NCBI GenBank assembly: GCA_965197675.1
Contig: OZ240221.1
Coordinates: 1,923,437 to 1,987,436, forward strand
DNA from: Dehalococcoidia bacterium
GTDB taxonomy: Bacteria; Chloroflexota; Dehalococcoidia; Plut-88900
Direction: 5' to 3'
Length of the DNA stretch: 64,000 bases
In this document: positions 6,791-33,237 of the stretch, one piece after another
Layout of the letters: each line of letters starts with the position of its first letter
Numbering within the stretch: position 1 is the first letter of the stretch
The notes under the pieces: generated by a model
What the model was told of the DNA's origin: nothing
Database searches by the model: none
Seen by the model: the letters and a program-made list of their open reading frames with translations, nothing else
Program-made: the position numbers and the translations under genes

Positions 6791-6831
6791 ATCGAAAATC
6801 TACTAACCCGTTATTCTTATCGCTGTCTTTG

Positions 6832-7542: not shown

Positions 7543-7555
7543 ACTCTCAGACCTC

Positions 7556-10483: not shown

Positions 10484-10498
10484 GGGCCTCTCGTTTGC

Positions 10499-10762
10499 TT
10501 AATCCACCTGCTCTTCAGGCCAGAAGGTTCTCTCCACTCGATTATTTAGTGTGTCTCGTTCTGCGAGGAACCAGCGGCGGCACCCAAACTTGTGATACCA
10601 CCACTCCCTTTGCACTCCCGCCTCGTTCTTGCGGAAGTGGAAATAGTGAGTCCAGACCTCTGATGGAGCATCGGGAGTAGGACGTGTAGTCACCTCACCA
10701 CCAAATCGGAAATCGTAGACGCTGCGCTCGCCACAGCTAGGACATGGCAACAGAAAAGCCAA
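10499..10762 (-). CDS. soxD: sarcosine oxidase delta-subunit family protein
   Basis: 87 aa with a CPSCGER...C..C zinc-ribbon-like N-terminus typical of SoxD. Sits immediately upstream of soxA. Confidence 0.8.
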   Translation of the reverse strand: MAFLLPCPSCGERSVYDFRFGGEVTTRPTPDAPSEVWTHYFHFRKNEAGVQREWWYHKFGCRRWFLAERDTLNNRVERTFWPEEQVD

Positions 10763-10840
10763 TAAGATTCTCCTTAAGAGTCGAACTGGAGGAAGACCCT
10801 GTTGGACTGTATCCTGGTTTGGATAATGATCGGCTCTTGA

Positions 10841-12205
10841 TTAGAACAGAGTGAGGTATCGCTCTATCTCCCACTGAGTAACCTGCCGATGATAGTCGCT
10901 CCATTCCTGCTCTTTGAGCTGAATGAACTCATCGTAGATAACGTCCAGGGCACTCTGAATCACCGAGTCCTGTTTTATCTCTTCCAAGGCTTCATACAAA
11001 CTTTGGGGCAGCAATCGAATGCCCCTTCGTTCAATCTCATCAAGACCGAGGTCGTACATGTTGCCCAGGTTGGGGTCACCAGGATCCAGTTTCCTCTTCA
11101 CTCCGTCCAACCCGGCCTGTACGTAGGATGCCAAAGCTAGGTAAGGGTTGCATCCGGCAGAAATTGTCCGATCCTCCAAGTGGCCTGGCCCGGCAGTGCG
11201 AATCATTTGTGTACGGTTGTTATCGCCGTAGGAGAGGAAGGCCGGAGTCCACAGGAATCCCGAGCGGGAGCCGACCAATGCTCTTCCTACCTGTAGCCTC
11301 TTGTAGCAGTTCACGGTGGGAGATGTTACACAGCAGAGAGCTCTAGCGTGATGTAAGATACCCCCGATAAAATGGTACGCCATCTCCGATAGCCCCAGAC
11401 CTTGAGGGTCTTCCTCGTCCAGAAAAAGATTCTCTCCCGTTCTTGCGTCTGCCAAGTGGAAATGGATGTGCGCACCACTGCCCGTGCGATCGGAGAAGGG
11501 CTTGGGCATGTGTGTGGCGGTGGCACCATGTTTTTTGGCCACCTGGCTCGTCATCATCTTGAAGAAGGTGTAGCGGTCGGCAGTAGTCAACGCATCGGCA
11601 TAGTGGAAATTAATCTCGTATTGGCCGTTTGCATCCTCGTGATCTGACTGATATACGTCCCAGCCCAATCGATTGAGGCCCTCGTTTATCTCTCTAAGAT
11701 AGTCCATGACCCCAGCGATGCCCTTGAAGTCGTAACAGGCCTTGTCCAAACTGTCCACATCATCTGGGTCCCATACCGCTATCGAGCCGTCATCGTTGTG
11801 CTTAACCAGGAAATGCTCCGGCTCTATACCTACATTAAAAACGTATCCTTGATCTCTGACTAGAGATAGTACCCTCTTCAGGTTTGTCCGTGGGCAATAG
11901 GGGTGAGGCTGATCATCAACGTACAGATCGCTGGCAAATCGGGCTGCGGTGGGCTCCCAGGGGAGTGGTGTATAGCTGTCAAGATCGATCCTGGCCAACA
12001 TGTCGTGGGAATGAGGCCCCTGACCCATGCCGGGTACGGCCCCTCCTGCGAATCCCGCCCCCACATCGATGACATCATCGAAGTGACTAACGGGCACAAG
12101 CTTGACTTTGGCAGCTCCATGGATGTCGACATATTGGGTCAGGACGTACTCGATTCCATCCTGCTCCATTCGTTGGCGGACATCTTCTCTATTATCTGCG
12201 GCCAT
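10841..12205 (-). CDS. glutamine synthetase family protein; in this context probably gamma-glutamylmethylamide synthetase (GmaS-like)
   Basis: GS catalytic-domain pattern at GmaS-like length (454 aa). Lies between the mgsABC-like and sox/mgd-like genes. Confidence 0.7.
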   Translation of the reverse strand: MAADNREDVRQRMEQDGIEYVLTQYVDIHGAAKVKLVPVSHFDDVIDVGAGFAGGAVPGMGQGPHSHDMLARIDLDSYTPLPWEPTAARFASDLYVDDQPHPYCPRTNLKRVLSLVRDQGYVFNVGIEPEHFLVKHNDDGSIAVWDPDDVDSLDKACYDFKGIAGVMDYLREINEGLNRLGWDVYQSDHEDANGQYEINFHYADALTTADRYTFFKMMTSQVAKKHGATATHMPKPFSDRTGSGAHIHFHLADARTGENLFLDEEDPQGLGLSEMAYHFIGGILHHARALCCVTSPTVNCYKRLQVGRALVGSRSGFLWTPAFLSYGDNNRTQMIRTAGPGHLEDRTISAGCNPYLALASYVQAGLDGVKRKLDPGDPNLGNMYDLGLDEIERRGIRLLPQSLYEALEEIKQDSVIQSALDVIYDEFIQLKEQEWSDYHRQVTQWEIERYLTLF

Positions 12206-12244
12206 GGAACTCCTCCTCCCTGGCCAATCAGGTTTCTGGGACGT

Positions 12245-13549
12245 CTAGTCCCAGCCGAAAACTTTATCGGTGCCGACCAGCGGAATCCGGGCCATGGCTG
12301 ACGCCTCGATGGTCAGAGCTGCCATGTCTTCTGGTTCCAAGCTGTGGACATCACTCTTGCCTAGAGAGCGGGTTAAAAGTGCCATCTCCATAGTCATGGA
12401 GTTGATGAAGTTGGCTACCCGAATGGCACCTTCCTCTGGGTCTAACCTCTTTTCCAGCTCGGGGTTCTGAGTGGCGATGCCTACTGGACATAGACCGGTC
12501 TGACAGTGATGGCAGTGTCCCGCTTTGATACCCACCTCTTTCTCGAAATCGGCCTCCGGAATATCCTTGTTGCAGTTCAAGGCTATCAAGGCGGCGATCC
12601 CGATGGCCACAGCATCGGCACCGAGAGCCAGGGCTTTGGCGGCGTCTACTCCGCTCCTTATACCTCCCGAAGCTATGAGGCTCACCTCACCGTAGAGCCC
12701 CAGCTCTCTTAGGGCCTCCCTGGCCAGAACTATAGCGGGGACGGTAGGTATGCCACTGTGATCCAGCAGTATCTCCGAAGAAGCTCCAGTGCCTGCCAGC
12801 ATGCTGTCTATGACTATGGCGTCGGCTCCCGCCTTCGCCGCCAGCTTGACATCATCCTTGACCCTGCAGGCTCCCAGCTTCACGTGGACCGGCACCTTCC
12901 AGTCAGTGGCTTCTCGAAGCTGTTCTATCTTCATCCCCAAATCGTCCGGGCCAAGCCAGTCTGGATGACGGGTGGGGCTGCGCTGGTCTATCCCTGAGGG
13001 GAGGTCTCGCATTTCCGCTATGTGATCCAGGACTTTTACGCCCATCAGCAACCCCCCGGTGCCTGGCTTGGCTCCCTGACCAACACATATCTCAATGGCA
13101 TCTGCCATCATTATGTGGTGAGGGTCTACCCCATACCGACTGGGCAGTATCTGATATATCAGCTTGTCCGATGCTTTCCTCTCGTCCATCAGCATACCAC
13201 CATCGCCGGTGCAGGTGGCGGAACCCACCATAGATGTGGCCTCTCCCAGAGCCACTTTGGCGTTTCTTGAGAGGGCCCCGTAGCTCATGCCAGTGATATA
13301 GATAGGGGTCTCTAACTCCAGGGGTTGTTCGGCGTACCTCTTGCCGATGATTGTCCTGGTGTTGCACTTCTCTTTGTATCCCTCCAGCGGGAACCGAGTC
13401 AGCCCTGTGGAAAGAAATGTCAGGTCGTCGAAGTGAGTGACCTTTTGAAAGGTGCTGAAGCCTCTGATCCGGTATCTGCCCAGCTCAGCTTTGGAATGCA
13501 CATCGTTGATAACATGAGGTGGCCAAATCTGGCTACTGCCCATCACCAT
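12245..13549 (-). CDS. FMN-dependent glutamate synthase domain protein (GltB central domain; MgsC-like N-methylglutamate synthase subunit C)
   Basis: Stand-alone GltB FMN/Fe-S domain with a Cys cluster (CHHCQTGLCPVG). Confidence 0.75.
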   Translation of the reverse strand: MVMGSSQIWPPHVINDVHSKAELGRYRIRGFSTFQKVTHFDDLTFLSTGLTRFPLEGYKEKCNTRTIIGKRYAEQPLELETPIYITGMSYGALSRNAKVALGEATSMVGSATCTGDGGMLMDERKASDKLIYQILPSRYGVDPHHIMMADAIEICVGQGAKPGTGGLLMGVKVLDHIAEMRDLPSGIDQRSPTRHPDWLGPDDLGMKIEQLREATDWKVPVHVKLGACRVKDDVKLAAKAGADAIVIDSMLAGTGASSEILLDHSGIPTVPAIVLAREALRELGLYGEVSLIASGGIRSGVDAAKALALGADAVAIGIAALIALNCNKDIPEADFEKEVGIKAGHCHHCQTGLCPVGIATQNPELEKRLDPEEGAIRVANFINSMTMEMALLTRSLGKSDVHSLEPEDMAALTIEASAMARIPLVGTDKVFGWD

Positions 13550-13564
13550 GTTGTTTCTCCCCTC

Positions 13565-14248
13565 CTAGATCACCCGTTTTTCTGACCGCTCTAGCGAATC
13601 GAAGTGGTACAGCTTCTTAGCTGATACGATCTTCTTGAAGTGAGGTTTATCCGTGACGCCATAGCCTTCCAAGATGCGCCATATCTCAACAAGTTCATCC
13701 TCCGTAGGTTCTTCTATCTTGGCGTCGCTTCCTAAAGAGCCAATGCTTCCCGCGACGAAGATCTCTCCCTCGTACATCGAGTCTCCCACACCGTCTCCTA
13801 CATCTCCACAGACTATTATCCTACCCTTCTGCATCATGAATCCAGTGAGAAATCCAGTATCGCCTCGGACGATGAGGGTGCCCCCTTTCATGGAGATGCC
13901 GGCTCTAGCTCCCGCGTTGCCGCCGACGAAGACCTCCCCACCCCTAATAGTCGAGGCTACTGAGGCGCCGGCATTTTTGGTCAATACGATTTTGCCATTC
14001 ATCAGATTGTCGCCTAGTGCCCAACCCGCATTGCCGTTGATAACTACCTCGGGGCCATCCATCAGGCTGGAGCAGAAATATCCGACACTCCCTTCGAAAG
14101 TAATCTTACAGGGCTTGAGGAGACCAACAGCCAGGTTGTGTCTGGCCTGAGGATTCAAGACTCTAATCTCTTGGTTCTCAGAAGTCAACTGCTTGATACG
14201 CTGGTTAATTTCCCGCACGCTCAAGGTGCTGGCTTTTATATCAGCCAC
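13565..14248 (-). CDS. glutamate synthase GXGXG-domain protein (MgsB-like)
   Basis: Repeated G-x-G-x-G beta-helix motif (GNAGWALG, GGNAGARAG, GDVGDGVG). Confidence 0.75.
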   Translation of the reverse strand: MADIKASTLSVREINQRIKQLTSENQEIRVLNPQARHNLAVGLLKPCKITFEGSVGYFCSSLMDGPEVVINGNAGWALGDNLMNGKIVLTKNAGASVASTIRGGEVFVGGNAGARAGISMKGGTLIVRGDTGFLTGFMMQKGRIIVCGDVGDGVGDSMYEGEIFVAGSIGSLGSDAKIEEPTEDELVEIWRILEGYGVTDKPHFKKIVSAKKLYHFDSLERSEKRVI

Positions 14249-15150
14249 GTCATAACCTCTTTTTCTTGAGGCTCCACACGTTCAATCTCATCGGGAAAAA
14301 TAGTCCTCAGAGCGACTTCCTCGGAAGCTAGAGAGATCATCTCTTTTGTCTCCATGAGGACTAGCGGCTTAGCTGCCCACTGATCTTTGGCGGCACCCAA
14401 TCCATCTTTGGTTGATACTAGATAAGTGAACGTACCGTCCAAGTCATCCAAAGAGGCCTCGAGAGCTTGTTGAAGCGAGGCCCCCTTGGCCAGCCTGTCA
14501 GCCAGATAGACGGCGATGAGTTCTGAATCGTTCTCAGTTTGAAAGCGGTGGCCCTGGTCTTCGTAGGCCCTCTTCAGCTTGTGATAGTTGGTGAGCTGTC
14601 CATTGTGAACGACAGTGATATCGGGAAACGGATACGCCCAGAAGGGATGAGCGTGAGTAATATCCACTCGACTCTCGGTAGCCATCCGAACGTGCCCAAT
14701 CCCGTGAGTACCCTTGAAAGAGGAGACTTTGTGCTTCTCATCGAGGTCTACACCACTTCCCACGTCCTTGATCACCTCCGAGCGTTCTCCTAGGCTATGG
14801 ATTTCGACCCCGTCGATGTTAACCAGAGCATCGGCCAGTACGTCAACGCCACCTTCATAGTTGACACCTAGTCTCAGGTACTCTCCTATAGAACCCCTAG
14901 TCCTCACCACCCCTCCACTCTCTGTAACTTTCTCTTCGACCTGCTGAAAGCGATCCTCGTAATCACTTTCGGGGTCGGCCCAGACTCGGATTAGGTAGTC
15001 CTCCTCTAATTCCTCACCTGCGATCGTTACGCCGCTGGAGTCCAGACCCCTGTGCTTCATCGCCTCCAGCATTTTCACCAGATCTTCCCCCACTGTAGCC
15101 AAGCTTCCAGGACTGGACAACTTGTACATAATGCCGCCTATGCCACACAT
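14236..15150 (-). CDS. class II glutamine amidotransferase domain protein (MgsA-like)
   Basis: Starts MCGI, with the catalytic Cys2 of Ntn-type amidotransferases. About 300 aa. First gene of the array. Confidence 0.75.
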   Translation of the reverse strand: MCGIGGIMYKLSSPGSLATVGEDLVKMLEAMKHRGLDSSGVTIAGEELEEDYLIRVWADPESDYEDRFQQVEEKVTESGGVVRTRGSIGEYLRLGVNYEGGVDVLADALVNIDGVEIHSLGERSEVIKDVGSGVDLDEKHKVSSFKGTHGIGHVRMATESRVDITHAHPFWAYPFPDITVVHNGQLTNYHKLKRAYEDQGHRFQTENDSELIAVYLADRLAKGASLQQALEASLDDLDGTFTYLVSTKDGLGAAKDQWAAKPLVLMETKEMISLASEEVALRTIFPDEIERVEPQEKEVMTWLI

Positions 15151-15201
15151 GTCTGACTCCTAGTTCCGTATTTGAGGACTAATTTACGCTTTTGTTTGAT
15201 G

Positions 15202-15942
15202 TTACGCAACGTGCTCTAGTATAAATGACGGGCCATAGCGCGTGCCTTTCTCGTCTCCTTCAGTGGCGGCGCTACCTGCCGACATATGTCCATGACGTAG
15301 GGATATCTGGGGTTGAAAGTGCATCCCTTGGGCGGGTTCAGTGGGCCTGGCGTCCCCGATAAGGATGACTCCCTCTCTTTTGACCTCTACTACTGGGTCG
15401 GACGTCGGTACTGCCAAGAGCAATGCTTTTGTGTCTGGATGTTGAGCATTCTCGTACAACTGGTCCCTGCCTGTTATTTCCGCAATTCTACTCATGTACA
15501 TCACCGCCACTCGATCCGATATGTAGCTAACCAATGAGAGATAGTGGGCTGTAAAGACGTAAGTGAGGTTGAACTGCTCCTGGATCTCTTGCAGCAGTTT
15601 ACTGATTTGAGCTTGAATCGATACATCTAGAGTTGAAACCGGCTCGTTGCGCACTATGAAGGAGGGATTTATCACCAGTGCCTTTGTACCCCATATTCTT
15701 TGTCGCTGTCTCCCGCTGAACTCGTGGGTATACCTGTCCACTATATTTAGGCTTGACCCAACCACTTGAAATAGCTCTTTTACACGCTCTCTGCGCTCTG
15801 CGTGGTATCTAATATTGTAGATTACTGACGGCTCTCCCACAACGTACCCTTCGGACGCTCGGGCAATTGGCTCTGGGAACGTTGCTGTCTCGTGCAACTT
15901 GGACTTCGACCGACGGTTGCTTGCTATAAACTTCCGCAGCAA
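15202..15942 (-). pseudogene. degenerate ABC-transporter ATPase fragment (OppF/DppF-like); lacks the Walker A region and has mutated signature and Walker B motifs
   Basis: Signature reads FSGRQRQRI where LSGGQRQR is canonical. Walker B reads FIVRNEPVSTLD where xxxxDEPTSALD is canonical. The N-terminal 80 or so residues are absent. Confidence 0.45.
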
Positions 15943-17323: not shown

Positions 17324-17399
17324 TGGTGGAGCTGGGGGGATTCGAACCCCCGACCTCCTCAATGCCATTGAGGCGCGCTCCCAACTGCGCCACAGCCCC
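17324..17399 (-). tRNA. tRNA-Ala (anticodon GGC), CCA encoded
   Basis: Cloverleaf folded by hand. Acceptor GGGGCTG/CAGCTCC carries the G3:U70 Ala identity pair. Anticodon loop is ATGGCAT. T-loop is GGTTCGAATCC. Confidence 0.9.
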
Positions 17400-21766: not shown

Positions 21767-22048
21767 CTATTCTTCGGCGGCGTCGAAGGGGATCATCCGA
21801 TTCAAGTGTTTTTGAGGGTCAGATTCGGGGGTTCTTCCCATAGCCTCATCCACCATCTTGTCGTATTTGGGGGCGAGATCAGACAATTTGCTGCCTATAG
21901 ATCTATGGAAAGCAAAAGATGACAATAGACGTATGGTCTGAACGCTGCCGCATCTCTCGCATTGGACCGACACTGGAGGCTGGAAGTTCCTGTAGAAGTT
22001 ACTGGTTACGCGGCTGCACTTCCCGCAGCGATATTCGTAAATAGGCAT
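21767..22048 (-). CDS. FmdB-family putative regulatory zinc-ribbon protein
   Basis: Starts MPIYEYRCGKC with a second CxxC pair. Confidence 0.6.
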   Translation of the reverse strand: MPIYEYRCGKCSRVTSNFYRNFQPPVSVQCERCGSVQTIRLLSSFAFHRSIGSKLSDLAPKYDKMVDEAMGRTPESDPQKHLNRMIPFDAAEE

Positions 22049-22082: not shown

Positions 22083-22517
22083 TTACTGAAATATAGTCTC
22101 TACCTTGGCCGAGGCATCGAAGAAATATTGAAAGGTCTGGTTGTAGCGAAAGAACAGGTCTCGACGATACTCGTCGCCAGTCTTGCTCTGAGCCAGCCCG
22201 TCCTCCCGTTCTAGGTCTAGAGTATTGAGAGTGTGGTCCAAGTCTGCGCTCCCGTGCTCTCCGATGTTGGTTAGCATCTCCTCCCACTCGGTGTAGCCCA
22301 TCTCAAGGTAGAAGTCTACATTCTCCAAATCATCCTCACTGGCCTCTAGGGCTTTCTCGCACTCCTTTCCCTCAAACTCCAGAATGAAGACCTTGTCCTC
22401 AACCTTAACTCCGACTGTGGCATCGCAGGTACCGCCGCCACCCCTTTGATAGGCCTCGTCACCGTTGAAGGCTGAGCGGACTGCGTCGAACCATTCGACC
22501 GATGGAAACACGGGCAT
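22083..22517 (-). CDS. hypothetical protein, possibly SCP2 sterol-carrier-like fold
   Basis: Weak SCP2-like pattern only. Confidence 0.3.
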   Translation of the reverse strand: MPVFPSVEWFDAVRSAFNGDEAYQRGGGGTCDATVGVKVEDKVFILEFEGKECEKALEASEDDLENVDFYLEMGYTEWEEMLTNIGEHGSADLDHTLNTLDLEREDGLAQSKTGDEYRRDLFFRYNQTFQYFFDASAKVETIFQ

Positions 22518-22519
22518 GT

Positions 22520-23623
22520 CTAGTCCTCCAAGTATGCCGCCAAGCCGCCGTCCAGCTTATCGCGACGGGGCATTCCTATCCAATCCGTGTACCGCAGATA
22601 GAGACGAATGAAGTCCCCCATCATGTGTTTGACTCTCCTCATACTACTGTAGGCGCCCTTGACCCCGTTACCCATGATCACTGCCATCGCCTCAGGGAGG
22701 ACGGGATCGTCCAGGTCCCGAACTAGCATTGGCTCCCCCACGTTCAGAAGGTTGTGGAATACTAACTCCTTCTCGGGCCTGTGAGCTATAACGTAACGTA
22801 GATGCTCCAAACCGTAGGCCATGTGCCGGGCCTTATCTTGAAGGCAGAGTCGAAATAGAATTTTCTCGGCGGGGTTGTGGGCTAAGACTTCACCATAGCG
22901 GTAGAGAATAAAGGTCAATGTGCCTCTTAGAAGGTAGAGGAACAGGGCTGCTTCAGACCAGCCTCCCGTGCTCTCCAAGATTATGCGGTTGACTTCTCCA
23001 CGGCCTTCTAGGCCCAACCCACCTCCGTTAGCCAGGGCTCTTTTCCGAAAGGCTTCCATGTGTCTCCCTGCGTCGGCGTTTTCGGTTGCCAGGAAGAGCT
23101 TAACCTCGTGGTATCCAAAGGACATATGCTGGAACCAGGAGCTGATGGACTCTACCTCGGTGTTGGCATGCTGGCTCAACTCGGTGCAGAGCTGACACAT
23201 GGCCGTCTCTACCTCATCGGATAAGGGGGTAAGGGTATCCCATGGAATGTGGGTGGCGGAAATCCACCGTCTTTGAATGGCCTCTTCGTACAGGTCTGCG
23301 GCATTGTCTGCCCATAGACTGTGTTTGTCACGCAGGCGATAACCGATGGGTGGAATGCCCTCGTGAGGATACCCGCCTCTAGGCAGACGGGTCTCATCAT
23401 CCCAACGGTCGGGTACCTCACCGTAGATGCCAACGTTCAGGGAGCCTAGAGTCAGTCCTTTTTTGCTCGGCCTGGCTTTGGTCCCCCATTGATGGGTCTT
23501 GTACATCCAGTCGAAAGAGGAGGGAGGGGTGGATTCAACTTCTTGTGAGACCTGAGTCTTGGCTGCCTCTCGTGTAGGACGTTTGGCGTCGACCTTGGGC
23601 CTCTTGCGTTTGGTCTCCGACAC
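22520..23623 (-). CDS. ferritin-like (diiron-carboxylate fold) protein, paralog of 23700..24869; the E residues of both ExxH motifs are replaced (ADAGRH, QDKARH)
   Basis: Alignable by eye to its neighbour. TEVE, AEK and the His residues are conserved but the ExxH glutamates are A and K here. Confidence 0.45.
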   Translation of the reverse strand: MSETKRKRPKVDAKRPTREAAKTQVSQEVESTPPSSFDWMYKTHQWGTKARPSKKGLTLGSLNVGIYGEVPDRWDDETRLPRGGYPHEGIPPIGYRLRDKHSLWADNAADLYEEAIQRRWISATHIPWDTLTPLSDEVETAMCQLCTELSQHANTEVESISSWFQHMSFGYHEVKLFLATENADAGRHMEAFRKRALANGGGLGLEGRGEVNRIILESTGGWSEAALFLYLLRGTLTFILYRYGEVLAHNPAEKILFRLCLQDKARHMAYGLEHLRYVIAHRPEKELVFHNLLNVGEPMLVRDLDDPVLPEAMAVIMGNGVKGAYSSMRRVKHMMGDFIRLYLRYTDWIGMPRRDKLDGGLAAYLED

Positions 23624-23699
23624 GTTCTAATACTCCTAGGAGCGGGACAGAAGGCTAAAGGATACTGAGACTTGAAGGTCGCCGAAGCACCGGCCTCTC

Positions 23700-24869
23700 T
23701 CAGTTCTGGATGTACTTCATCAACTCGGGATTGGCTCGGCCGTTTTCGAAGCGCTCGCTGAAGCCCGCCGAGTGCACTCTTTGGATGTACTCTTTTACCT
23801 GGCGCTTCTGGATAGCTAGCGAGATATTGTGACCCTCATCTATGTTCTCCTTGCCACGCCCCAGGAGAATTCCTAAGGCGTCGTGGCTGGGAGAATCCAG
23901 GGAGAGGGGATTTTGATTTCCTCTCACCAGCGCCTCTTCGCCGTCGTCAAGGTAGTAATGAATCTCTTCGCGGCGTTCTGGGGCTGTCTCTCCGACGTAG
24001 CGCAGGTGCATCACTCCGAAGGCGACGTGCCGGGACTCATCCTGTGCAGCAAGGCGATATATTCGCTTCTCGGCTTCGTTGTATGCCATCAACTCGCCGG
24101 TGCGGAATATGGTGAGCACCGACCCTTCGCCCGAGATGTGTAAACGGGCGGACATCTCTGTGAAGTCACGTGCTACATCTATGCTGCCGACGGAAGAGGC
24201 GGCTGTTGCTTCCGGCCCCGGCTGCTGCAGCAGCCCTCCGCCATTGACGAGGGCACGCTTACGGAATACATCCAAGTGACGCGCCTCGTCCATTATCTGA
24301 GTGATAAGGAACAATCGAGGCTCCATGTAGTCGGGGCTTGTCCAGGAAACCCAGCGACCCGGCACGTCTCCAGCTACGAACTCCACCTCTGTAAGGAAGG
24401 TTGCGAGCTGACACTCCGCTCTCTCTATATCATCGGGCAGGGGTTCTATGCTGTCCCAAGGGACGTCGGTTGCCGAACTCCACTGTCTCTGGAGGGCTTC
24501 TTCGTAAAGACTTGCGGCGTTAGCAAGCCATATGTCCGACTTGGTGAAAACACTGTAGGCACCTATGCGAAATCCATCGCGCCTGGAGGTGGAACCACGA
24601 GGACGGCCAGTGCGATTATCGCTGTGATCAGATGGTGCACCATAGGACCCTATGCTGATGTCATCGAGGGTGAGACCGTGTTTTCCAGGTTGGGCTTTTG
24701 CACCCCACTCGCCCCTCTGGTCCATCCAGCCCATGTCCAACTCATAACCCTGGGTATGCCACTTAGGTTTCTCGGTGGCGCTAGATGTAACCATACCGTC
24801 ACCCCTTGCCTTAGGATGACTGAATTCTATCATGATTGAGAGATCTGAAGCAAACGCCCAGTTGAACAC
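23700..24869 (-). CDS. ferritin-like diiron-carboxylate protein with a full ligand set (TEVE ... DEARH ... AEK ... DESRH); putative oxygenase/oxidase catalytic subunit
   Basis: Two E...ExxH half-sites at helix-appropriate spacing. Confidence 0.45.
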   Translation of the reverse strand: MFNWAFASDLSIMIEFSHPKARGDGMVTSSATEKPKWHTQGYELDMGWMDQRGEWGAKAQPGKHGLTLDDISIGSYGAPSDHSDNRTGRPRGSTSRRDGFRIGAYSVFTKSDIWLANAASLYEEALQRQWSSATDVPWDSIEPLPDDIERAECQLATFLTEVEFVAGDVPGRWVSWTSPDYMEPRLFLITQIMDEARHLDVFRKRALVNGGGLLQQPGPEATAASSVGSIDVARDFTEMSARLHISGEGSVLTIFRTGELMAYNEAEKRIYRLAAQDESRHVAFGVMHLRYVGETAPERREEIHYYLDDGEEALVRGNQNPLSLDSPSHDALGILLGRGKENIDEGHNISLAIQKRQVKEYIQRVHSAGFSERFENGRANPELMKYIQN

Positions 24870-24899: not shown

Positions 24900-26177
24900 A
24901 TGCTAGTTGATTTGGCATATGGAAGGACTGGACTTACTGTCGAACTTCCCGACGAACGAACTACCGTCATAGAACCGACCTATTTGCCTGCCCTGCCCAA
25001 GGAAAAAGATACGCTGCTCAAAGCCATAAGAGAGCCTATAGGCAAACCTCCCCTGCGAGAACTTGCCAGAACCACTCACAGGGTAGCCATATCGGTTTGC
25101 GATATCACCAGACCTATGCCTTCGAGAACTGTGCTGCCAGTGCTACTGAAGGAGCTTGACCATGTCCCCAAGGATCAGATAGTGATCCTGGTAGCTACCG
25201 GGACTCATCGCGCTAATACTCTTCAGGAGATAGAGGAGATGCTAGGCAGAGAGATAATCGAGAACTACCAAGTAGTCAATCACAACGGTTTCGACAAAGA
25301 CCAGCTTAAGCTGATTGGCAAGACCTCAGATGGGATACCCATTTTGCTTAACCGACACTGGTTGGAGAGCGACTTCAGGATAACCACAGGTTTCGTTGAA
25401 CCTCACTTCTTCGCTGGCTTCAGTGGAGGTCCCAAAATGGTGGCGCCGGGGCTGGCCGGATTCGAAACGATCCTGGGCTTGCACAGCGCTCCCCTCATTG
25501 GTCATCCCAAGTCCAAGTGGGGTGCTATCGACGGGAATCCCATTCAGGATGCCATCCGTCAAATCGTGCGTAGTAGTGGTGTAGATTTCAGTATCGACGT
25601 GACCATCAACAGAGACCACCGGATCACCAGCGTGCATGCAGGCGATGTGTTTGGTGCTCATAGAGAAGCATGCCAAATGGCGAGAGAAGTCGCCATGCAC
25701 CAAGTGATCGAGCCCTTCGATGTGGTCATTACCACCAACAGCGGATACCCTCTGGATATCAACCTGTATCAGAGCGTCAAGGGTATGTCGGCGGCTGCTC
25801 AGGTAGTTAGACCCGGCGGCACTATCATCTGTGCCGCCGAATGTAGTGACGGCATTCCCGACCATGGCGAATACAAGGAGATTCTGGCCTCACGAAACAG
25901 CCCTCAGGAGATGTTGGATATGATCAACTCACCTGAATACCATCACCAGGATCAATGGCAGGTCCAGCTTCAAGCCCAGATACTGCTTCGTGCTCAGGTG
26001 TATCTAAAGTCCAGCTATCTTAGTGCAGAACAGGTAAAGGCGGCTCATCTGGAGCCGGTAGAAGACCTACAAGACACGGTCATGCAGTGTATTGAAAGGC
26101 ATGGAGAGGGTGCTACTGTTTGCGTTCTGCCTCAAGGTCCTCAGACCATTCCATACGTGAAGAACGACTCTGGCTAG
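24900..26177 (+). CDS. LarA-like (lactate racemase family, nickel-pincer-nucleotide-dependent 2-hydroxyacid racemase/epimerase-like) protein
   Basis: LarA N-terminal domain pattern with ATGTHR. About 425 aa. Confidence 0.65.
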   Translation: MLVDLAYGRTGLTVELPDERTTVIEPTYLPALPKEKDTLLKAIREPIGKPPLRELARTTHRVAISVCDITRPMPSRTVLPVLLKELDHVPKDQIVILVATGTHRANTLQEIEEMLGREIIENYQVVNHNGFDKDQLKLIGKTSDGIPILLNRHWLESDFRITTGFVEPHFFAGFSGGPKMVAPGLAGFETILGLHSAPLIGHPKSKWGAIDGNPIQDAIRQIVRSSGVDFSIDVTINRDHRITSVHAGDVFGAHREACQMAREVAMHQVIEPFDVVITTNSGYPLDINLYQSVKGMSAAAQVVRPGGTIICAAECSDGIPDHGEYKEILASRNSPQEMLDMINSPEYHHQDQWQVQLQAQILLRAQVYLKSSYLSAEQVKAAHLEPVEDLQDTVMQCIERHGEGATVCVLPQGPQTIPYVKNDSG

Positions 26178-27226
26178 GCCATAGCTTCCTGTACCCTCTT
26201 CAGGTTGGACACGTCCGGAGCTAGAACCCCGCGCTCCACGGCTTTCACTACCTGGACAACGGCCTCTTGTGTTGGAGTGGGAATGCCAGCCTCTCTTCCC
26301 TTGGCGACTATCAGACCGTTCAAGTAGTCGATTTCGGTGCGTCGTCCTTTGAGCACGTCCTGGGCAGTGGATGGGAGGGTGCCGGCTTGGGCTTTGTCTG
26401 CCACATATCGGAGGGCCACTTTCAGATCCTCCAATCCCTCCCCTCTGCCCCTTTCCAGCCAACTATGGGCTTCTATACCTAACAGAAGACCCAGAGAGTA
26501 TCCAAGTGCTTCTCCTACAGCCACTGCCTCAGAACCGAGTTGGATCATAATCTGTTGCGCATCTGGGATTTTTGCCAGATCCTTTTCGTCCAATCCGGTG
26601 ATAGCAGAAACCGAGTTGATCATGGTGTTGGAGGAGAGCTTGCTCCAGCGTTCCCCCCATAGGTTGGTCGTCGCTTCGCTGTTGTTCACCTTGTACAGAA
26701 GCCTTACAAGCTTCTCGAGTCTAGAGGTTTTGCGACCGTGCACTTCTCCTGCACGAAAAATTGTGTAGTCGCCCCGTTCGGTTTTGGCGGTACGCATCAC
26801 GTGGCCTGGCCCTTTGATGTTCACGGTCAAGGCATTGGCGATGCAACCCAGAGTCCGTCCCCAGCCCACGATTTCGGCTATGTGTTCTTCGTTTATGCCG
26901 TTCTGGAGAGATACGACGAATCCGTTTGGTGATAAGTAGTCCTTGATCAACGCAGTGGCCCACTGGGTGTCATAGGACTTGGTGGAGATGAAGGCCACGT
27001 CTACCTGGGCTTTGATGAACTGTTGAATCTCGTAGATATGGATGGCTTTGGGTGATGTTCGTTGGTCTCCGTCGGCGGTGGTGATTAGAAGGCCTTCCTT
27101 TTTTATTTTCTGGATGTGGTCTGGCCACGGATCTATGAGAGTCACATCCTCTCCGGCCTTTGCCAGGAGACCCCCCGTGTAGCTCCCGACAGCCCCTGCA
27201 CCCACGAATGCTAACCTTTTTGTCAC
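26174..27226 (-). CDS. 2-dehydropantoate 2-reductase family (PanE/ApbA) oxidoreductase
   Basis: Rossmann motif AFVGAGAVGSYTGGLLA. Start set to the GTG at 27226, which is preceded by AAGGGAGAG, because the longer ORF would overlap the upstream hydrolase. Confidence 0.65.
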   Translation of the reverse strand: MTKRLAFVGAGAVGSYTGGLLAKAGEDVTLIDPWPDHIQKIKKEGLLITTADGDQRTSPKAIHIYEIQQFIKAQVDVAFISTKSYDTQWATALIKDYLSPNGFVVSLQNGINEEHIAEIVGWGRTLGCIANALTVNIKGPGHVMRTAKTERGDYTIFRAGEVHGRKTSRLEKLVRLLYKVNNSEATTNLWGERWSKLSSNTMINSVSAITGLDEKDLAKIPDAQQIMIQLGSEAVAVGEALGYSLGLLLGIEAHSWLERGRGEGLEDLKVALRYVADKAQAGTLPSTAQDVLKGRRTEIDYLNGLIVAKGREAGIPTPTQEAVVQVVKAVERGVLAPDVSNLKRVQEAMA

Positions 27227-27236
27227 AAGCTCTCCC

Positions 27237-28157
27237 TTAACTCGCCGCGGCGGGGATGTACTTTTGAAACCATTGAGTGGCCTCGGCCATGACAGTGTCG
27301 AAAGTTGGTGGGTAATAGACGTCGTAGTGACCACAGTTGGGAAGTGCCACCCATTTCTTAGGTTCTAATGCCCGATCGTATACCTCTCGAGTAACTTCAG
27401 GAAACACCAATGCATCCTTCTCGGCCACGATGAACATGACCGCCCGAGGCGAGATTTTGTGTGCTATCTCATCGGGATGAAAGTCGATTACTGCCTGGCC
27501 CGTCTCTAACGGTAGCTGTGTGCAAGCTGAAGGAAACTGCTCGGCTACTTTGTTGTCTTCTGCCTCGTACTCAGGAGGTGATGGCATCAGCCTGGGAATG
27601 TCCACCATCTGGGAGGCTCCGTCGCGTACTCGACGTTCCCAGTCCACCTCCAGCTCTCGCTGAAACTCCCCCCATTCGGACTTTGATCGGATGCTCCTGA
27701 ACCAACTCTCACCGTTGCCCACTCCCACTACACTGACCGTGCATTTTACACGTTGGTCCACTGCGGCGGCGTAGACAATGTTGGCTCCACCGAAACTGAT
27801 CCCGTGCAGTCCCAGATTGGATGGATTCACCCCGGGTAGCTGTTGAAGGAAAGTGAGGGCGTTACGGATGTCCCATATCTGTTCCAGGGGTATCAAGCGC
27901 CATTTAGGACCATCACTTTCGCCAAACCCCCGGTAATCGAAGGTCATGGCCACGTAACCCTGGCCAGCTAGGTGGTTGGCGATGTCCGGTAGATATACCT
28001 CTTGATGTCCCCCGAATCCGTGGCAGACCAGGATGGCGCTTCGCCTCTCGTCTGGTGCAACGTTATCGGGCCGGTAGAGATGTCCTACCAACTGAATACC
28101 GTCGCTGTAGAAGGTAACGCGTTCAGGCATGAGACTACACCTGCAAAGGAGGCTCAC
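27237..28157 (-). CDS. alpha/beta hydrolase fold protein
   Basis: HGFGG oxyanion-region motif and a G-x-S-x-G nucleophile elbow (GISFGG). Confidence 0.65.
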   Translation of the reverse strand: MSLLCRCSLMPERVTFYSDGIQLVGHLYRPDNVAPDERRSAILVCHGFGGHQEVYLPDIANHLAGQGYVAMTFDYRGFGESDGPKWRLIPLEQIWDIRNALTFLQQLPGVNPSNLGLHGISFGGANIVYAAAVDQRVKCTVSVVGVGNGESWFRSIRSKSEWGEFQRELEVDWERRVRDGASQMVDIPRLMPSPPEYEAEDNKVAEQFPSACTQLPLETGQAVIDFHPDEIAHKISPRAVMFIVAEKDALVFPEVTREVYDRALEPKKWVALPNCGHYDVYYPPTFDTVMAEATQWFQKYIPAAAS

Positions 28158-28202: not shown

Positions 28203-29267
28203 CTAAACAAGGACTCGTGGTCCGATGGCAGACTCGAAGGCCCTCACTTCTGCCTCTGGCATGAGAAAGAGGTCTGGGATATTCTTCTCTCGACTTTGTG
28301 GCGTACCTTGGGGATCATAAGCGCGTTCAAGGTGAGCAGTGAAAAGACATACATGGTCCACTCTCGACTCCTCCCTTGCACGCGCCAGCCGCTCGGCACA
28401 GTATTCTGGTGGGCCGAAGAGGCCAACGCCGTCGCAGACCTGACTCAAGGTCTCATCCGGGGTATCCCTGAAATCCTTGGGTAATGTAATACCGGCTTGC
28501 TGGAACCAGTAACGGTTCGAGTCTGCCATCCACCGCGGGCCCTGGAAAAGGGCAGGGTGTCGTGAACCAACGGTATCGGCGTAGAGCCAATCGATGGCCC
28601 ACCGGCGGGCTGCCTCCAAGTCGGAGTCGATATGGATGGGGGTCATAAAGATAACGGGAATTGTGGCCGGGTCACGTCCCGCTCGCTGGGCGCCTATAGC
28701 GATATGTCGACGGGCGGCATCCACCATCTCTGGATTAAGCCCTGCCTGAATATAGACCCCGTCCCCAATCTCGCCAGCCAACTCAGCCACACGCGGTCCC
28801 GAGCAGGCAATGTAGATGGGTGTGGCAGGCGCTGAGATATAGTCTAAGCGCAGGGAGGGATTGCTGCCAAAGGCCACGGGTTCACCAGCCAGAAGCTTAC
28901 GCAAAGTAGTAACCGTGTACCGGAGCTCTTCTAGGGTGGAGTGTTGGAGGCCGATGAGGCGCATCATTATGTCTCCCCTGCCTACAACCAGCTTGATGCG
29001 CCCCGGAGCTATCTCCTGGAGGGAATTGGCCAGGCAGGCCAACACAGTGGGGTGACGGGTGATGCCGTTAGTGACGCCAGTGTACAGGTCTATGTTAGAG
29101 GTCTTCCCAGCTGCCAGGGTCAGAGCCGCATAAAGGTCGCGGCCGCTCTCTGGGTGATCATGGATGGCCACGCCGTTCAAGCCAACGGTCTCGCACCACT
29201 GAATGAACTCCACCACGCGCGGAATGGAAAGCCCTAAAGGCACCCTGAGATCGACTTTTAGCTTCAT
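28203..29267 (-). CDS. luciferase-like monooxygenase (LLM) family flavin/F420-dependent oxidoreductase
   Basis: LLM TIM-barrel N-terminal pattern. Confidence 0.7.
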   Translation of the reverse strand: MKLKVDLRVPLGLSIPRVVEFIQWCETVGLNGVAIHDHPESGRDLYAALTLAAGKTSNIDLYTGVTNGITRHPTVLACLANSLQEIAPGRIKLVVGRGDIMMRLIGLQHSTLEELRYTVTTLRKLLAGEPVAFGSNPSLRLDYISAPATPIYIACSGPRVAELAGEIGDGVYIQAGLNPEMVDAARRHIAIGAQRAGRDPATIPVIFMTPIHIDSDLEAARRWAIDWLYADTVGSRHPALFQGPRWMADSNRYWFQQAGITLPKDFRDTPDETLSQVCDGVGLFGPPEYCAERLARAREESRVDHVCLFTAHLERAYDPQGTPQSREKNIPDLFLMPEAEVRAFESAIGPRVLV

Positions 29268-29338: not shown

Positions 29339-30466
29339 CTAAAGGAAGCCGTAAAGCTTGCCAGCGTTATCTCGGGTGACCTTTCGGCGAGCCGTATCGC
29401 TGAGCTTTTTCATGTCCCGGTCTATGGCCTTTTGTGAGTTGGGCCATGACCCATCCACGTGAGGATAGTCCGAGCCCCACATGACCCTGTCCTCACCTGC
29501 GAGGGGAATGATGTCACCCGCCGTGGGCTCTGACTCGAAGGTCGAGAATCCCTGTCGACGGAAGTAACCGCTGGGTTTTAGGCTGAGACCTTCCTGACCC
29601 TCTCCTTCATAGTCCATTCTGTCCAGAACATAGGGCAGCCAGCTGACGCCGCACTCGCCAAGAACGAACTTGAAGTTGGGGTATCGCTCGCATGCTCCGG
29701 AGAAAACAATGCTGGACAGGTACTCCACACCGGAAAGCTGGAACATGGTAAGGAGTATGTTAGAGTAGATGTCGCCATAGGCTTCGGCTTCTACAGGGTC
29801 TTCAATCTTCCTCGGCCATAGCTCCAGGGTGTGGAAAGAGATGGGTAGTCCAGTTTCCTCGCCGGCGGCCCATAGTGGATCCCAGTCTTTGTGATACATT
29901 GGCTTGTTCATGGTGCCTGGGCTGATCTCGGCTCCTCTCAGACCCAATTTAGCGACTCTAAGTAACTCCGCGGCAGCCACCTTGGGGTCGTGATTAGGAA
30001 GACATGCAAGCCCAGCCAAGCGGTCGGATTTGCCTTTGGTGAAGTCGGCGATCCAGTCGTTATATATTCGATAAATCTCCACCTTCAACTCGGGGTCGTC
30101 GTCTGGCTGAGGTACATCGAGAAGTCCATATATGACCTCTGCGTCTACTCCATCCCGCTCTAAATGCTGTATGCGTACATCTGCATTGGCTGGGGGATAT
30201 CTGCCGTCGGTTATTTCATAGAGGCCGGCTTTTTCAAAGGTCTCTATTTTACGCTTGTGTTCGGATGTGGGATTTTCAAGGAATTCCTTCCACGACCCTA
30301 CGGAGCCTCTGTCTGTGCCGCCTGCCTCCCATCGAAGCCCCCTATCCGTCTCAATCACGTGAGGCACCTGGTCCTTCCACTTGGACGATGCGTTAGCCGT
30401 AAAGACGTCCTCTGGCATGAAAAAGATGTCCATATGGCCGTCGCCTGAAATGATCCTGTAGTCCAT
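29339..30466 (-). CDS. amidohydrolase family 2 protein
   Basis: Paralog of 2047..3153 and 38261..39418 (ISGDGHMD motif). Confidence 0.7.
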   Translation of the reverse strand: MDYRIISGDGHMDIFFMPEDVFTANASSKWKDQVPHVIETDRGLRWEAGGTDRGSVGSWKEFLENPTSEHKRKIETFEKAGLYEITDGRYPPANADVRIQHLERDGVDAEVIYGLLDVPQPDDDPELKVEIYRIYNDWIADFTKGKSDRLAGLACLPNHDPKVAAAELLRVAKLGLRGAEISPGTMNKPMYHKDWDPLWAAGEETGLPISFHTLELWPRKIEDPVEAEAYGDIYSNILLTMFQLSGVEYLSSIVFSGACERYPNFKFVLGECGVSWLPYVLDRMDYEGEGQEGLSLKPSGYFRRQGFSTFESEPTAGDIIPLAGEDRVMWGSDYPHVDGSWPNSQKAIDRDMKKLSDTARRKVTRDNAGKLYGFL

Positions 30467-30621: not shown

Positions 30622-32292
30622 ATGTATACGATGGAAGTCCTGCATCCCGTGGCGGAAGCAGAGGGCGACAAGAAGGTTTCCAGACCTGCTCCTAGGCCCA
30701 ACTCTTTGGATGGCCTCACCATAGGATTGGTGTGGAATGCTAAGAGAGGTGGCCTCGATGCCCTTGGTAAGGCTGGAGAGCTTATCAGCAATAAATACAG
30801 CGGCGTGACCGTAAAGCGCTACGAAGGCAGCCAGCCATGTAAGAAGGAGCTTCTGGAGCAGGCGGTGAGAGAGTGTGATGTATTCGTCGGCTCCACAGCT
30901 GACTGAGGCTCTTGTACGTCGTGGCTTGTCCACGACATGGTTGTGATAGAGAAGGCGGGCAAACCGACAGCCGCTATAGTGGCCAAGGGCTTCGACAGGG
31001 ATGCCATGGTCAGCGCCAGAGCCTTCGGGTTGCCCTGGTTTAGATATGCCCTCGTGCCAGAGGTTCTGACTGGCCTCAGCCCTGAGCGCATAGAGGAGCA
31101 TGTTACCAACGCCTTCGACCAGATAGTGCAGGTGCTCACCACCAACTCCAACGGAGAAGGCCTGCCCGCCGTAGCAGATGCGAGAGCTGCGGATAGATTG
31201 AAGGTGGAGGGAACAGACAGGTACGATGCCTTTGAGGCCATGAATAGCCTGTTCATGGAGAATGAGTGGGGGGATGGCTTCCCCTTGATACCTCCGACGC
31301 CGGAAAAGGTGGAGTGGATGCTAAAGGGCACCACTAGAGACCACCAAGACGTGGTTACGGTGCTGCCGCCGGGCCTCCGATATGCCACCGTAGAGAAGAT
31401 AGCCATAAACGCGGTGATGGCAGGGTGCGAGCCTTCTCATTTACCCATCCTTATGGCGGCCTGCGAGGCGCTACCTGGATTCGGTAGCACTGCAAGAGTA
31501 TTGACCATGTCGACAAGCCCCAATGCACCACTGCTGATGATTAATGGCCCTATCTCCGGGGAGATAGGTTTCAACTCAGGTCGATGCGCCTTGGGGCCGG
31601 GATCCCCGTCGCGACATAACGTAGCGGTTGGCAGGGCTTTCAGGCTTGTTTTGATGAACGTCGGTAATGCCTACCCAGCTCGCATGGATATGGACACCAT
31701 TGGCTCGTCTCGCAAGTTCAGCATGTGCTTTGCAGAGAATGAAGAAGAGAGTCCATGGGCTCCCTATCACACGGACTTGGGCTTCGACAAGGATGAGAGC
31801 ACCGTCACCATATTTGACACTATCGGGGAAGAGGACGTGGACGACTTGACCAACTGGGAGTCGGAACGAGTGCTGGACAGTTTCGCTGCCGCTTGCTCCA
31901 ATGTGCCGGCCAGGTACGTGGTCAACTTCTTCGACCAGGAAAAACCGACGGATCGTATACTGCTGGCCATGTGTCCCGAGCACGCCAACATATGTGGAAA
32001 GGAAGGATGGTCGAAGCGCTCGGTGCGAGAGTACGTACACAACTATGCTCGCATGAATGCTAGGGTGGCCATGTGCTGGGGACGTAAGACCCCAGAGCTT
32101 TTCCGCCCGGAGTGGAGATGGCTGCTGGACAGGTCAGAATCGGAACTGGAGCAGATAGCGTTGCAGGTTCTGGAAAATGCCGACCTGTACGATGTAGCTG
32201 TGGTTGGCGGGCCTGCTGGAAAGAGTATGGTTTTCCACGCCCTGTGCGGTGGGCCCTCTACTGTCCTCATCAAGGATAGAGCTCCTATCTAG
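30622..32292 (+). CDS. candidate selenoprotein of unknown function. Two same-frame ORFs are joined by an in-frame TGA at 30904..30906, giving the motif U-G-S-C. I recall an NCBI family named 'UGSC family (seleno)protein' from memory only; this is unverified.
   Basis: ORFs 30622..30906 and 30937..32292 share one frame. Read-through gives ...VGSTAD-U-GSCTSW... A SECIS-like hairpin lies 11 nt after the TGA. Confidence 0.5.
30918..30936 (+). promoter_or_regulatory. bacterial SECIS-like hairpin (GTCGTGG-CTTGT-CCACGAC) beginning 11 nt 3' of the in-frame TGA
   Basis: A 7-bp perfect stem with a 5-nt loop that contains GU. The 11-nt spacing matches the position of the E. coli fdhF SECIS. Confidence 0.4.
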
Positions 32293-32364: not shown

Positions 32365-33237
32365 ATGGAATTCGGAATAGTTTTTCCCCAGACGGAGATA
32401 GGAACGAATCCCAGGGATGTGCGGGATTTCGTTGTAGCCGTGGAAGAGATGGGATACTCCAATCTGGTTGTGTATGACCACGTACTGGGTGCCGACACCA
32501 CAAATCGTCCTGACTGGGATGGCTTCTACGCCCTCGAAGACATGTTCCACGAACCCTTCGTACTGTTCGGGTTCCTAGCGTCGTTTACGAAAAGAATTCG
32601 GCTGGTGACGGGAATCCTAATACTATCGCAGCGACAGACGGCTCTGGTGGCCAAACAGGCTGCCGAAGTGGATGTGCTCACTGGAGGCCGCCTAACTCTG
32701 GGCGTTGCCGTAGGCTGGAACGACGTGGAGTTTGAGGCCCTCGGGGAGGACTTTCATAACCGAGGTGTCCGATCTGTGGAGCAGATCGAAGTACTCAGGG
32801 CCTTGTGGACACAGGAGATAGTGGACTTCAAAGGGCGCTGGCACACGATTACGGCAGCTGGCTTAAATCCTCTTCCCGTGCAACGCCCTATACCTATCTG
32901 GTTTGGCGGAGGCGCCGAGCCCGTCCTGAAGAGGATAGGCCGTTTGGGAGATGGCTGGCTAATCGACCGTGAACCCGATGAAGACGGGAAAGCGGCAATA
33001 GAGCGCGTAGGAAACTATGCTAGAGAGGTTGGGCGAGACCTCTCTTCCATAGAGATCGTTCCCACTATAGAGTCTTCCTCTGTGGGAATTGAGTCTATAG
33101 TGGACTGCGTAAAGGAGTGGCGAGGCCTCGGTATAACAAACGTAGCCATTGAAACGATGAAGCTGGGTCTGACCACTGCCAAGGACCACATCGACTTCGC
33201 GAGGAAGCTGAAAGAAGACACTAAAAGCGTGGTTTAG
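32365..33237 (+). CDS. LLM-class F420/flavin-dependent oxidoreductase
   Basis: Luciferase-like pattern over about 290 aa. Confidence 0.7.
   Translation: MEFGIVFPQTEIGTNPRDVRDFVVAVEEMGYSNLVVYDHVLGADTTNRPDWDGFYALEDMFHEPFVLFGFLASFTKRIRLVTGILILSQRQTALVAKQAAEVDVLTGGRLTLGVAVGWNDVEFEALGEDFHNRGVRSVEQIEVLRALWTQEIVDFKGRWHTITAAGLNPLPVQRPIPIWFGGGAEPVLKRIGRLGDGWLIDREPDEDGKAAIERVGNYAREVGRDLSSIEIVPTIESSSVGIESIVDCVKEWRGLGITNVAIETMKLGLTTAKDHIDFARKLKEDTKSVV

Follow-up and report, generated by a model that had tools for sequence, protein, structure and literature searches.

A fixed gene cassette from Dehalococcoidia joins a putative R2-like dimetal protein to a degenerate paralog, SCP2-fold proteins and a Cys4 ribbon

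Two adjacent genes lie on the reverse strand of a 64,000-nucleotide stretch of DNA from a Dehalococcoidia bacterium (contig OZ240221.1, positions 1,923,437 to 1,987,436; hereafter, the window). They encode related proteins that we call A and B, and are followed by genes for an SCP2-fold protein (C) and a Cys4 ribbon protein (Zn) (Table 1). Both listed open reading frames (ORFs) were confirmed, at 23700..24869(-) for A and 22520..23623(-) for B. The original prediction, which was made from the sequence alone, held that these adjacent genes align as paralogs. In BLASTP the two proteins are 39% identical over 297 aa (E=1e-65), which marks A and B as paralogs, far beyond chance. Every motif that had been quoted could be located in the two proteins: TEVE (135-138), DEARH (169-173), AEK (241-243) and DESRH (252-256) in A, and TEVE (155), DAGRH (184), AEK (252) and DKARH (263) in B. 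Residue numbers of A count from Met26 of its listed ORF, which is encoded by an ATG at 24794. This ATG, and not the GTG at 24869, is probably the true start of A, because the best 120 homologues listed are mostly 350-366 aa long, 14 aligned homologues begin at this Met, and a Shine-Dalgarno-like GGGGTGA lies upstream of the ATG.

Proteins A, B and C match no family in Pfam, and their only matches in NCBIfam are far sub-threshold ones to R2lox (R2-like ligand-binding oxidase). A PADLOC scan of the same three proteins also gave no family, and a reading as a defence system was dropped. An AlphaFold2 model of A has a mean predicted local distance difference test score (pLDDT) of 75. Residues 120-360 are mostly modelled with confidence and include long helices at 121-151, 157-185, 211-235 and 240-270; the N-terminal ~110 residues are modelled poorly, as would fit a region that becomes ordered only in a complex. 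When this model was compared with the Protein Data Bank (PDB) by Foldseek, only ferritin-like dimetal proteins were matched, namely VlmB (8WVR/6D9F, the best match), the R2 subunit of ribonucleotide reductase (RNR), R2lox, and the hydroxylases of soluble methane monooxygenase (sMMO) and phenol hydroxylase. These matches have a probability of 1.00, E-values of about 1e-3 to 1e-2 and template modelling (TM) scores of 0.4-0.58. The predicted structure places A, as a distant member, in the R2-like branch of the ferritin-like superfamily, in agreement with the fold originally proposed.

The residues that could bind metal in A emerge from conservation and from alignment to solved relatives. An exhaustive HMMER search defined a wider superfamily of 1,148 clusters at 50% identity, and candidate ligand columns were scored in 78 full-length representatives. 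An alignment of 28 catalytic-type sequences, reaching down to 26% identity, has invariant columns at A126, E138, E158, E170, R172, H173, E223, D252, E253, R255, H256 and G321. These include all six putative ligands of A (E138, E170, H173, E223, E253 and H256), which are invariant in 28/28 sequences. Significance against the PDB was reached only by a profile restricted to catalytic-type sequences, which matched a VlmB homolog (E=5.3e-11) and Geobacillus R2lox (E about 4e-6); a phmmer search with A alone was insignificant (E=0.08), and a mixed profile of A and B sequences was weak (E=0.026). In the profile alignment, DE(170)ARH(173) of A falls on DEAKH of R2lox (E102/H105), E223 (within "SGEG" or "GEG") on E167 of "VEGT", and DE(253)xRH(256) on "MDEGRH" (E202/H205), and E138 lies at most one residue from E69. 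The R2lox numbering was anchored by mutant entries for A171, Y162 and Y175, and R2lox E167 and E202 are metal ligands (PMC6399176). The same columns of A also align with the ligands of VlmB. The putative ligand set of A is the canonical one of four Glu and two His: E138, E170xxH173, E223 and E253xxH256.

The full E/ExxH/E/ExxH set that had been assigned to A therefore stands, but with E223 in place of the "AEK" glutamate (E242). This glutamate was rejected as the third carboxylate because it varies (T/D/S) in divergent catalytic-type relatives and because it lies on the same predicted helix (240-270) as E253, 11 residues ahead of it. The spacing of H118 and Y122 in E. coli R2 is that from the first His ligand to the radical tyrosine. 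The corresponding position in A (H173+4), which is that of the class Ia R2 radical tyrosine, is occupied by Phe177, and R2lox likewise has Phe there.

At the four carboxylate columns, B has A153, A185, G234 and K264, and it keeps both histidines (H188 and H267). The TEVE of B was tried as a retained ligand and rejected. The T132-W148 segment, whose ends are invariant, is equally long in A and B, and the TEVE of B is 5 residues off that of A. Because TEVE is out of register in this gapless segment, B carries Ala, Ala, Gly and Lys at all four carboxylate positions. Alignment thus puts the degeneration of B further than first described: both ExxH glutamates had been taken as lost, as they are, but the TEVE and AEK glutamates had been taken as kept, so that the earlier map erred for two of the four ligands of B and for one of A.

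The asymmetry between the two proteins extends to the whole family. Among the best 120 A homologues listed, DExRH is present in 119/120 and QDExRH in 120/120, whereas the first motif, found in 108 B homologues, has Glu in 0/108 of them, with A, G, N, C, S, T or H instead. The second motif has Lys in most B homologues. Over twenty aligned B sequences, column identity averages 58%, and two residues, Gly234 and His267, never vary. To judge from these patterns, B is not decaying and is under strong purifying selection.

To describe the surroundings of these genes, 80 loci seeded with A were taken from species-representative genomes and 80 loci seeded with B from metagenomes, the window proteins were mapped onto them, and adjacency was counted only in loci whose contig extends far enough. 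In 75/77 A-seeded loci, B comes after A on the same strand, and A precedes B in 67/68 B-seeded loci. The gaps between A and B are often short, and their order and strand are constant. Of 99 loci with room 3' of B, 94 carry C and/or Zn, in the orders C-C'-Zn (41 loci), C-Zn (25), Zn-C (17) or a partial arrangement (11). C' is a second, divergent SCP2 paralog found in most related loci. It is missing from the window, where the order is C-Zn and no room is left for a second C. The A-B-Zn-C arrangement with a single C occurs in 17 loci that are mostly metagenome contigs, with some Chloroflexota metagenome-assembled genomes (MAGs) (L115, L116, L119, L124-L146 and others).

Across 77 complete cassettes, mean pairwise identity is 71% for A, 57% for B, 52% for C and 43% for Zn. 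All four proteins co-diverge, and the distance matrices of A and B correlate with r=0.92. A evolves most slowly and the accessory proteins faster, a sequence ranking like that of a catalytic subunit and its accessories. A-B-C-Zn is a fixed four-gene cassette (five genes elsewhere, with C'). Some hosts have several cassettes, two or three per genome (L032/L053, L038/L068). A scan for promoters and terminators gave results at or below shuffled expectation and was uninformative on the limits of an operon, and no riboswitch or leader was found near the cassette with Rfam.

A few A genes stand alone, with the full ligand set and no adjoining B, C or Zn (L003, L050 and L081). Locus L003 has two of them, at 10001..11092 (+) and 14593..15672 (-), in a neighbourhood of luciferase-like, amidohydrolase, Rieske and glyoxalase genes. 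An A-B pair that lacks C and Zn is encoded in this genome as well (L030), and L003 shares synteny with the window.

Protein C was tested for the alpha/beta SCP2 fold and has it. It carries an invariant Cys53 (in "FEGxEC"), a GGG motif and, in its last helix, invariant polar residues R124, N126, Q127, T128, Q130 and D134. This pattern of conservation suggests a specific ligand or protein interface. SCP2-fold carriers that act with lipid or quinone hydroxylases include UbiJ and UbiT, and COQ9 works functionally with the diiron protein COQ7. The Zn protein matches Zn_ribbon_8 in Pfam (PF09723, 40.1 bits against a cut-off of 34.4) and TIGR02605 (42.7 bits against 31.3). Its four Cys residues are kept in 90% or more of 49 cassette copies, and its C-terminal tail is conserved too.

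Both paralogs belong to large families: clusters at 90% identity number over 2,400 for the A type and over 2,200 for the B type, and the few that bear a name are annotated as "hypothetical" or "ferritin-like domain-containing". The genes occur in Dehalococcoidia/SAR202, in Pseudomonadales (Azotimanducaceae/HTCC2089-type) and in MAGs from sponges and soil. A from Chloroflexota and A from Gammaproteobacteria are about 65-72% identical. A literature search combining SAR202, ferritin-like or diiron proteins, SCP2, zinc ribbon and R2lox found no description of the cassette, and none of the literature found describes an active and a degenerate R2-type protein combined with SCP2-fold proteins and a Cys4 ribbon. 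Some distant catalytic-type relatives have fused domains: TusA-like (P0481, P0504), SnoaL-like (P0397) or a lycopene-cyclase-type C-terminus (P0499).

R2lox resembles A in its R2-type ferritin fold, in the aligned four Glu and two His, and in the Phe four residues after the first His. Two papers describe R2lox as binding a fatty acid, a hydrophobic ligand (PMC6399176; PMC9314684), which would match the SCP2 partners of A. However, the NCBIfam model for R2lox (NF006200) has a cut-off of 194 bits, far above the scores of A (27.8) and B (15.8). R2lox has an ether cross-link between Tyr162 and Val72 (PMC6399176). Tyr162, which lies 5 residues before E167, faces Leu218 of A, and this Leu is invariant across A and B; the position of Val72 in the alignment is ambiguous by one residue. 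Unlike R2lox, A has a conserved N-terminal extension of ~115 residues, and it is accompanied by a degenerate paralog, SCP2 proteins and a Cys4 protein, which are not described for R2lox.

VlmB, together with "Protein 60" (8WVR, 6D9F), is the best match of A by profile and by fold and has the DEARH/DExRH motifs in common with it, at an identity of about 17-18% and a TM score of 0.5-0.58. VlmB is a diiron-dependent oxygenase that converts a hydrazine intermediate into an azoxy product (PMC11705231). It resides with VlmO in a natural-product gene cluster, and not beside a degenerate paralog, SCP2 proteins or a ribbon. The AurF-like Pfam family (PF11583) is also missed by A, which scores 9.8 bits against a cut-off of 29.6. 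Only distant relatives reach this cut-off: P0499 scores 31.6 bits, and P0495 and P0504 come near.

An active subunit paired with a scaffold paralog that has lost its ligands is known from PaaA/PaaC, from the alpha and beta subunits of sMMO and of phenol and toluene monooxygenases, and from yeast Rnr2/Rnr4. A and B show the same pattern of an intact and a ligand-less paralog, but their sizes (about 360 aa each) and their accessory proteins differ. There is no match to the PaaA_PaaC family of Pfam even at E<=10, and no paaB, paaD or paaE gene is a neighbour in 168 loci. With regard to sMMO and the phenol and toluene hydroxylases, no Phenol_Hydrox match was obtained, no conserved genes for an effector, a Rieske ferredoxin or a reductase lie beside the cassette, and the methane monooxygenase hydroxylase (MMOH) and phenol hydroxylase are weak matches of A in fold or sequence. 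With regard to RNR R2, Phe177 replaces the radical tyrosine and no R1 gene is present in any locus. By these comparisons, A resembles R2lox and VlmB yet falls outside R2lox, AurF, PaaA/PaaC, the soluble diiron monooxygenases and RNR R2.

Beyond the four or five core genes, the flanks of the cassette vary widely. Clustering of flanking ORFs, in 83 and then in 168 loci, revealed no reductase, ferredoxin, flavoprotein, regulator or transporter that travels with it, and the original observation that no reductase partner is visible in the window thus applies family-wide. The commonest non-core neighbour is a family III CoA-transferase (17-19 loci), and the only other pattern to emerge was synteny within lineages. 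A HIT gene lies 0.1-8 kb away in 22 gammaproteobacterial loci, and a rubredoxin gene is present in only 5 loci. In some Pseudomonadales loci, a rubredoxin and a HIT-family gene are arranged divergently just upstream of A (L164, 9256..9830; also L047, L056, L165 and L166). The two were rejected as parts of the system, their variable distance indicating regional synteny; the rubredoxin could be a possible electron donor in those Pseudomonadales lineages.

Other parts of the window are listed in Table 1. The reverse-strand genes at 5573..15150 have the domain composition of a methylamine/N-methylglutamate pathway. A homolog of LarA is divergent from A and scores 533 bits in the NCBIfam model for Ni-dependent lactate racemase (cut-off 460); it is followed by a PanE/ApbA-type reductase, an arrangement that is kept in locus L168 and not in other cassette loci. 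A UGSC-family protein (PF24696, a recent Pfam family) is encoded near the cassette both in the window and in L168 (276..1952). The co-oriented run of genes from A to sucD has a tRNA gene at its end, 62 bp 3' of sucD. Classical menaquinone biosynthesis genes lie at a distance of 33 kb and are unlinked to the cassette; the host probably makes menaquinone. Paralog-rich genomes have been reported for SAR202-type Dehalococcoidia, and the Amidohydro_2 and luciferase-like paralogs in the window match this pattern. With these paralogs, a family III CoA-transferase gene and its synteny with L003, the window resembles a genome of this type.

Table 1. Genes and other features of the window, with the cassette given first
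Feature	Coordinates	Strand	Description
A	23700..24794	-	364 aa; predicted catalytic-type R2-like/ferritin-like subunit; listed ORF 23700..24869 reaches GTG at 24869
B	22520..23623	-	paralog of A with degenerate metal site; proposed non-catalytic partner
C	22083..22517	-	144-aa SCP2-fold protein
Zn	21767..22048	-	93-aa FmdB-family Cys4 (CxxC...CxxC) ribbon with conserved C-terminal tail
Glutamine synthetase (GS)-like gene	10841..12205	-	N-methylglutamate-type set
Glu_synthase FMN domain	12245..13549	-	N-methylglutamate-type set
GXGXG	13565..14248	-	N-methylglutamate-type set
Class-II glutamine amidotransferase (GATase)	14236..15150	-	N-methylglutamate-type set
Sarcosine-oxidase-like DAO subunit	5573..6790	-	domain match
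Sarcosine-oxidase-like GCV_T subunit	6832..7542	-	domain match
Sarcosine-oxidase-like Fer2_4/Pyr_redox/GCV_T protein	7556..10483	-	975 aa; domain match
tRNA-Ala(GGC)	17324..17399	-	
LarA homolog	24900..26177	+	
PanE/ApbA-type reductase	26174..27334		
UGSC-family protein	30937..32292	+	
Luciferase-like monooxygenase	28203..29267		
Luciferase-like monooxygenase	32365..33237		
Amidohydro_2 paralog	2047..3153		
Amidohydro_2 paralog	29339..30466		
Amidohydro_2 paralog	38261..39418		
Family III CoA-transferase	53302..54534		
Menaquinone genes	57383..60530	+	probably to about 62547; MenF-like chorismate-binding and MenD-like thiamine pyrophosphate (TPP) enzymes

On balance, we lean towards the view that A-B-C-Zn is a multi-component metallo-oxidase or oxygenase, in which A is catalytic, B is its degenerate partner and the SCP2 proteins present a hydrophobic substrate. 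A would bind a dinuclear Fe/Fe or Mn/Fe center through E138, E170xxH173, E223 and E253xxH256, and would activate O2. B would be a paralog of ancient origin that has ceased to bind the dimetal cofactor, one carboxylate having become a conserved Lys. By analogy with Rnr2/Rnr4, PaaA/PaaC and the alpha and beta subunits of sMMO, it would most likely be an obligate structural partner in an alpha/beta dimer. The SCP2-fold proteins, by analogy with UbiJ/COQ9 and the fatty acid of R2lox, would most likely present the hydrophobic substrate or take up the product. The Cys4 ribbon might be a rubredoxin-like point of electron entry, or else a subunit for assembly or bridging; otherwise, a generic reductase of the cell or the substrate itself might supply the electrons.

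Several points weigh against this interpretation. The convergence of six A residues on one site is read from alignment to solved relatives. The solo A genes imply that A may also work without B. The invariant polar residues and Cys of C suggest something more specific than generic lipid carriage, and no conserved reductase, ferredoxin or flavoprotein gene accompanies the cassette. Some of these points would suit a scheme in which A and B are independent homodimeric enzymes whose adjacency reflects a shared pathway, with A as a self-sufficient oxidase like R2lox or VlmB, and with B as a non-metal enzyme or a mononuclear one that uses its retained His/Asp. We consider this scheme rather unlikely. 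It would accommodate the A genes without a nearby B (L003, L050 and L081), the strong conservation of B, including DxxRH and DKxRH at the former site, and the fact that the solved relatives matched by A are homodimers. However, reciprocal adjacency is near 97-99%, with constant order and strand and often short gaps, A and B co-diverge closely, and among 68 testable loci there is a single confirmed solo B (L147).

The surroundings of the cassette in the window had originally suggested an O2-dependent step of one-carbon (C1)/tetrahydrofolate (THF) or acyl-CoA metabolism, tied to metF, an enolase-family dehydratase and sucCD, which now appears quite improbable. These genes are co-oriented with the cassette in the window, where the gaps between Zn, metF, the enolase gene and sucC measure 34-88 bp, and among non-core neighbours a family III CoA-transferase is the commonest (19/168 loci). 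One close relative, L168, preserves the order of the window genes; its B has 87% identity, and the divergent LarA gene is present there too. Elsewhere, in ~160 other loci, neither metF nor sucCD adjoins the cassette, and enolase-family matches are stray (L083 and L157 only). Conservation of the gene pair with its neighbours therefore applies to the SCP2-like and FmdB genes, but not to metF, the enolase-family gene and sucCD. The tie to C1 or acyl-CoA metabolism is unsupported because these neighbours are lineage-limited and because the nearby metF is more economically explained by the separate C1 set at 5573..15150 than by the ferritin-like pair. Iron or peroxide handling in the style of rubrerythrin or ferritin, with A-B as ferroxidase or peroxidase and the ribbon as a rubredoxin-like domain, is a very slight prospect. 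The ferritin-like fold of A fits this idea, and a Cys4 protein that is nearly always in the cassette recalls the diiron and Fe(Cys)4 sites of rubrerythrin. But A is about 360 aa long with long R2-type helices, its best matches are substrate-oxidising proteins (VlmB, R2lox and MMOH) and not ferritin, Dps or rubrerythrin, SCP2-fold partners have no role in iron storage, and the multiple cassettes in some genomes are typical of catabolic diversification. Finally, a divergent RNR small-subunit pair is hardly credible and already effectively refuted. R2 proteins are among the fold matches of A, and the combination of an active and a degenerate protein mirrors yeast Rnr2/Rnr4, but there is no match to Ribonuc_red_sm of Pfam, Phe177 occupies the radical-tyrosine position, no R1 gene is near any locus, and neither the SCP2 nor the ribbon partners are related to RNR.

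We also put forward, as a tentative and decidedly less secure proposal than the multi-component oxidase as such, that the cassette encodes an unrecognised Mn/Fe or diiron oxygenase. It would consist of a catalytic alpha and a degenerate beta subunit, one or two SCP2 carriers and a Cys4 rubredoxin-like subunit, would oxidise some class of hydrophobic compounds, for example isoprenoid, alicyclic, sterol-like or long-chain lipid ones, without a dedicated reductase, and would be common both in Dehalococcoidia of the SAR202 type and in Gammaproteobacteria from the sea, sponges and soil. The family is large and unusually conserved, its A, B and C proteins have no Pfam family, and the cassette is small, self-contained and directly testable. 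It would add an accessory-protein logic, based on SCP2 carriers and a Cys4 ribbon, to ferritin-like oxidases, and would join Rnr2/Rnr4 as a second natural case in which an R2-type protein retains a ligand-less paralog as its partner. To our knowledge, the function of R2lox, the closest characterised relative by motif, is still unknown, and work on the cassette could inform this problem. Oxidation of recalcitrant dissolved organic matter has been ascribed to SAR202 lineages; if the proposal is true, the cassette would represent a new enzyme architecture with a bearing on how refractory organic matter is turned over.

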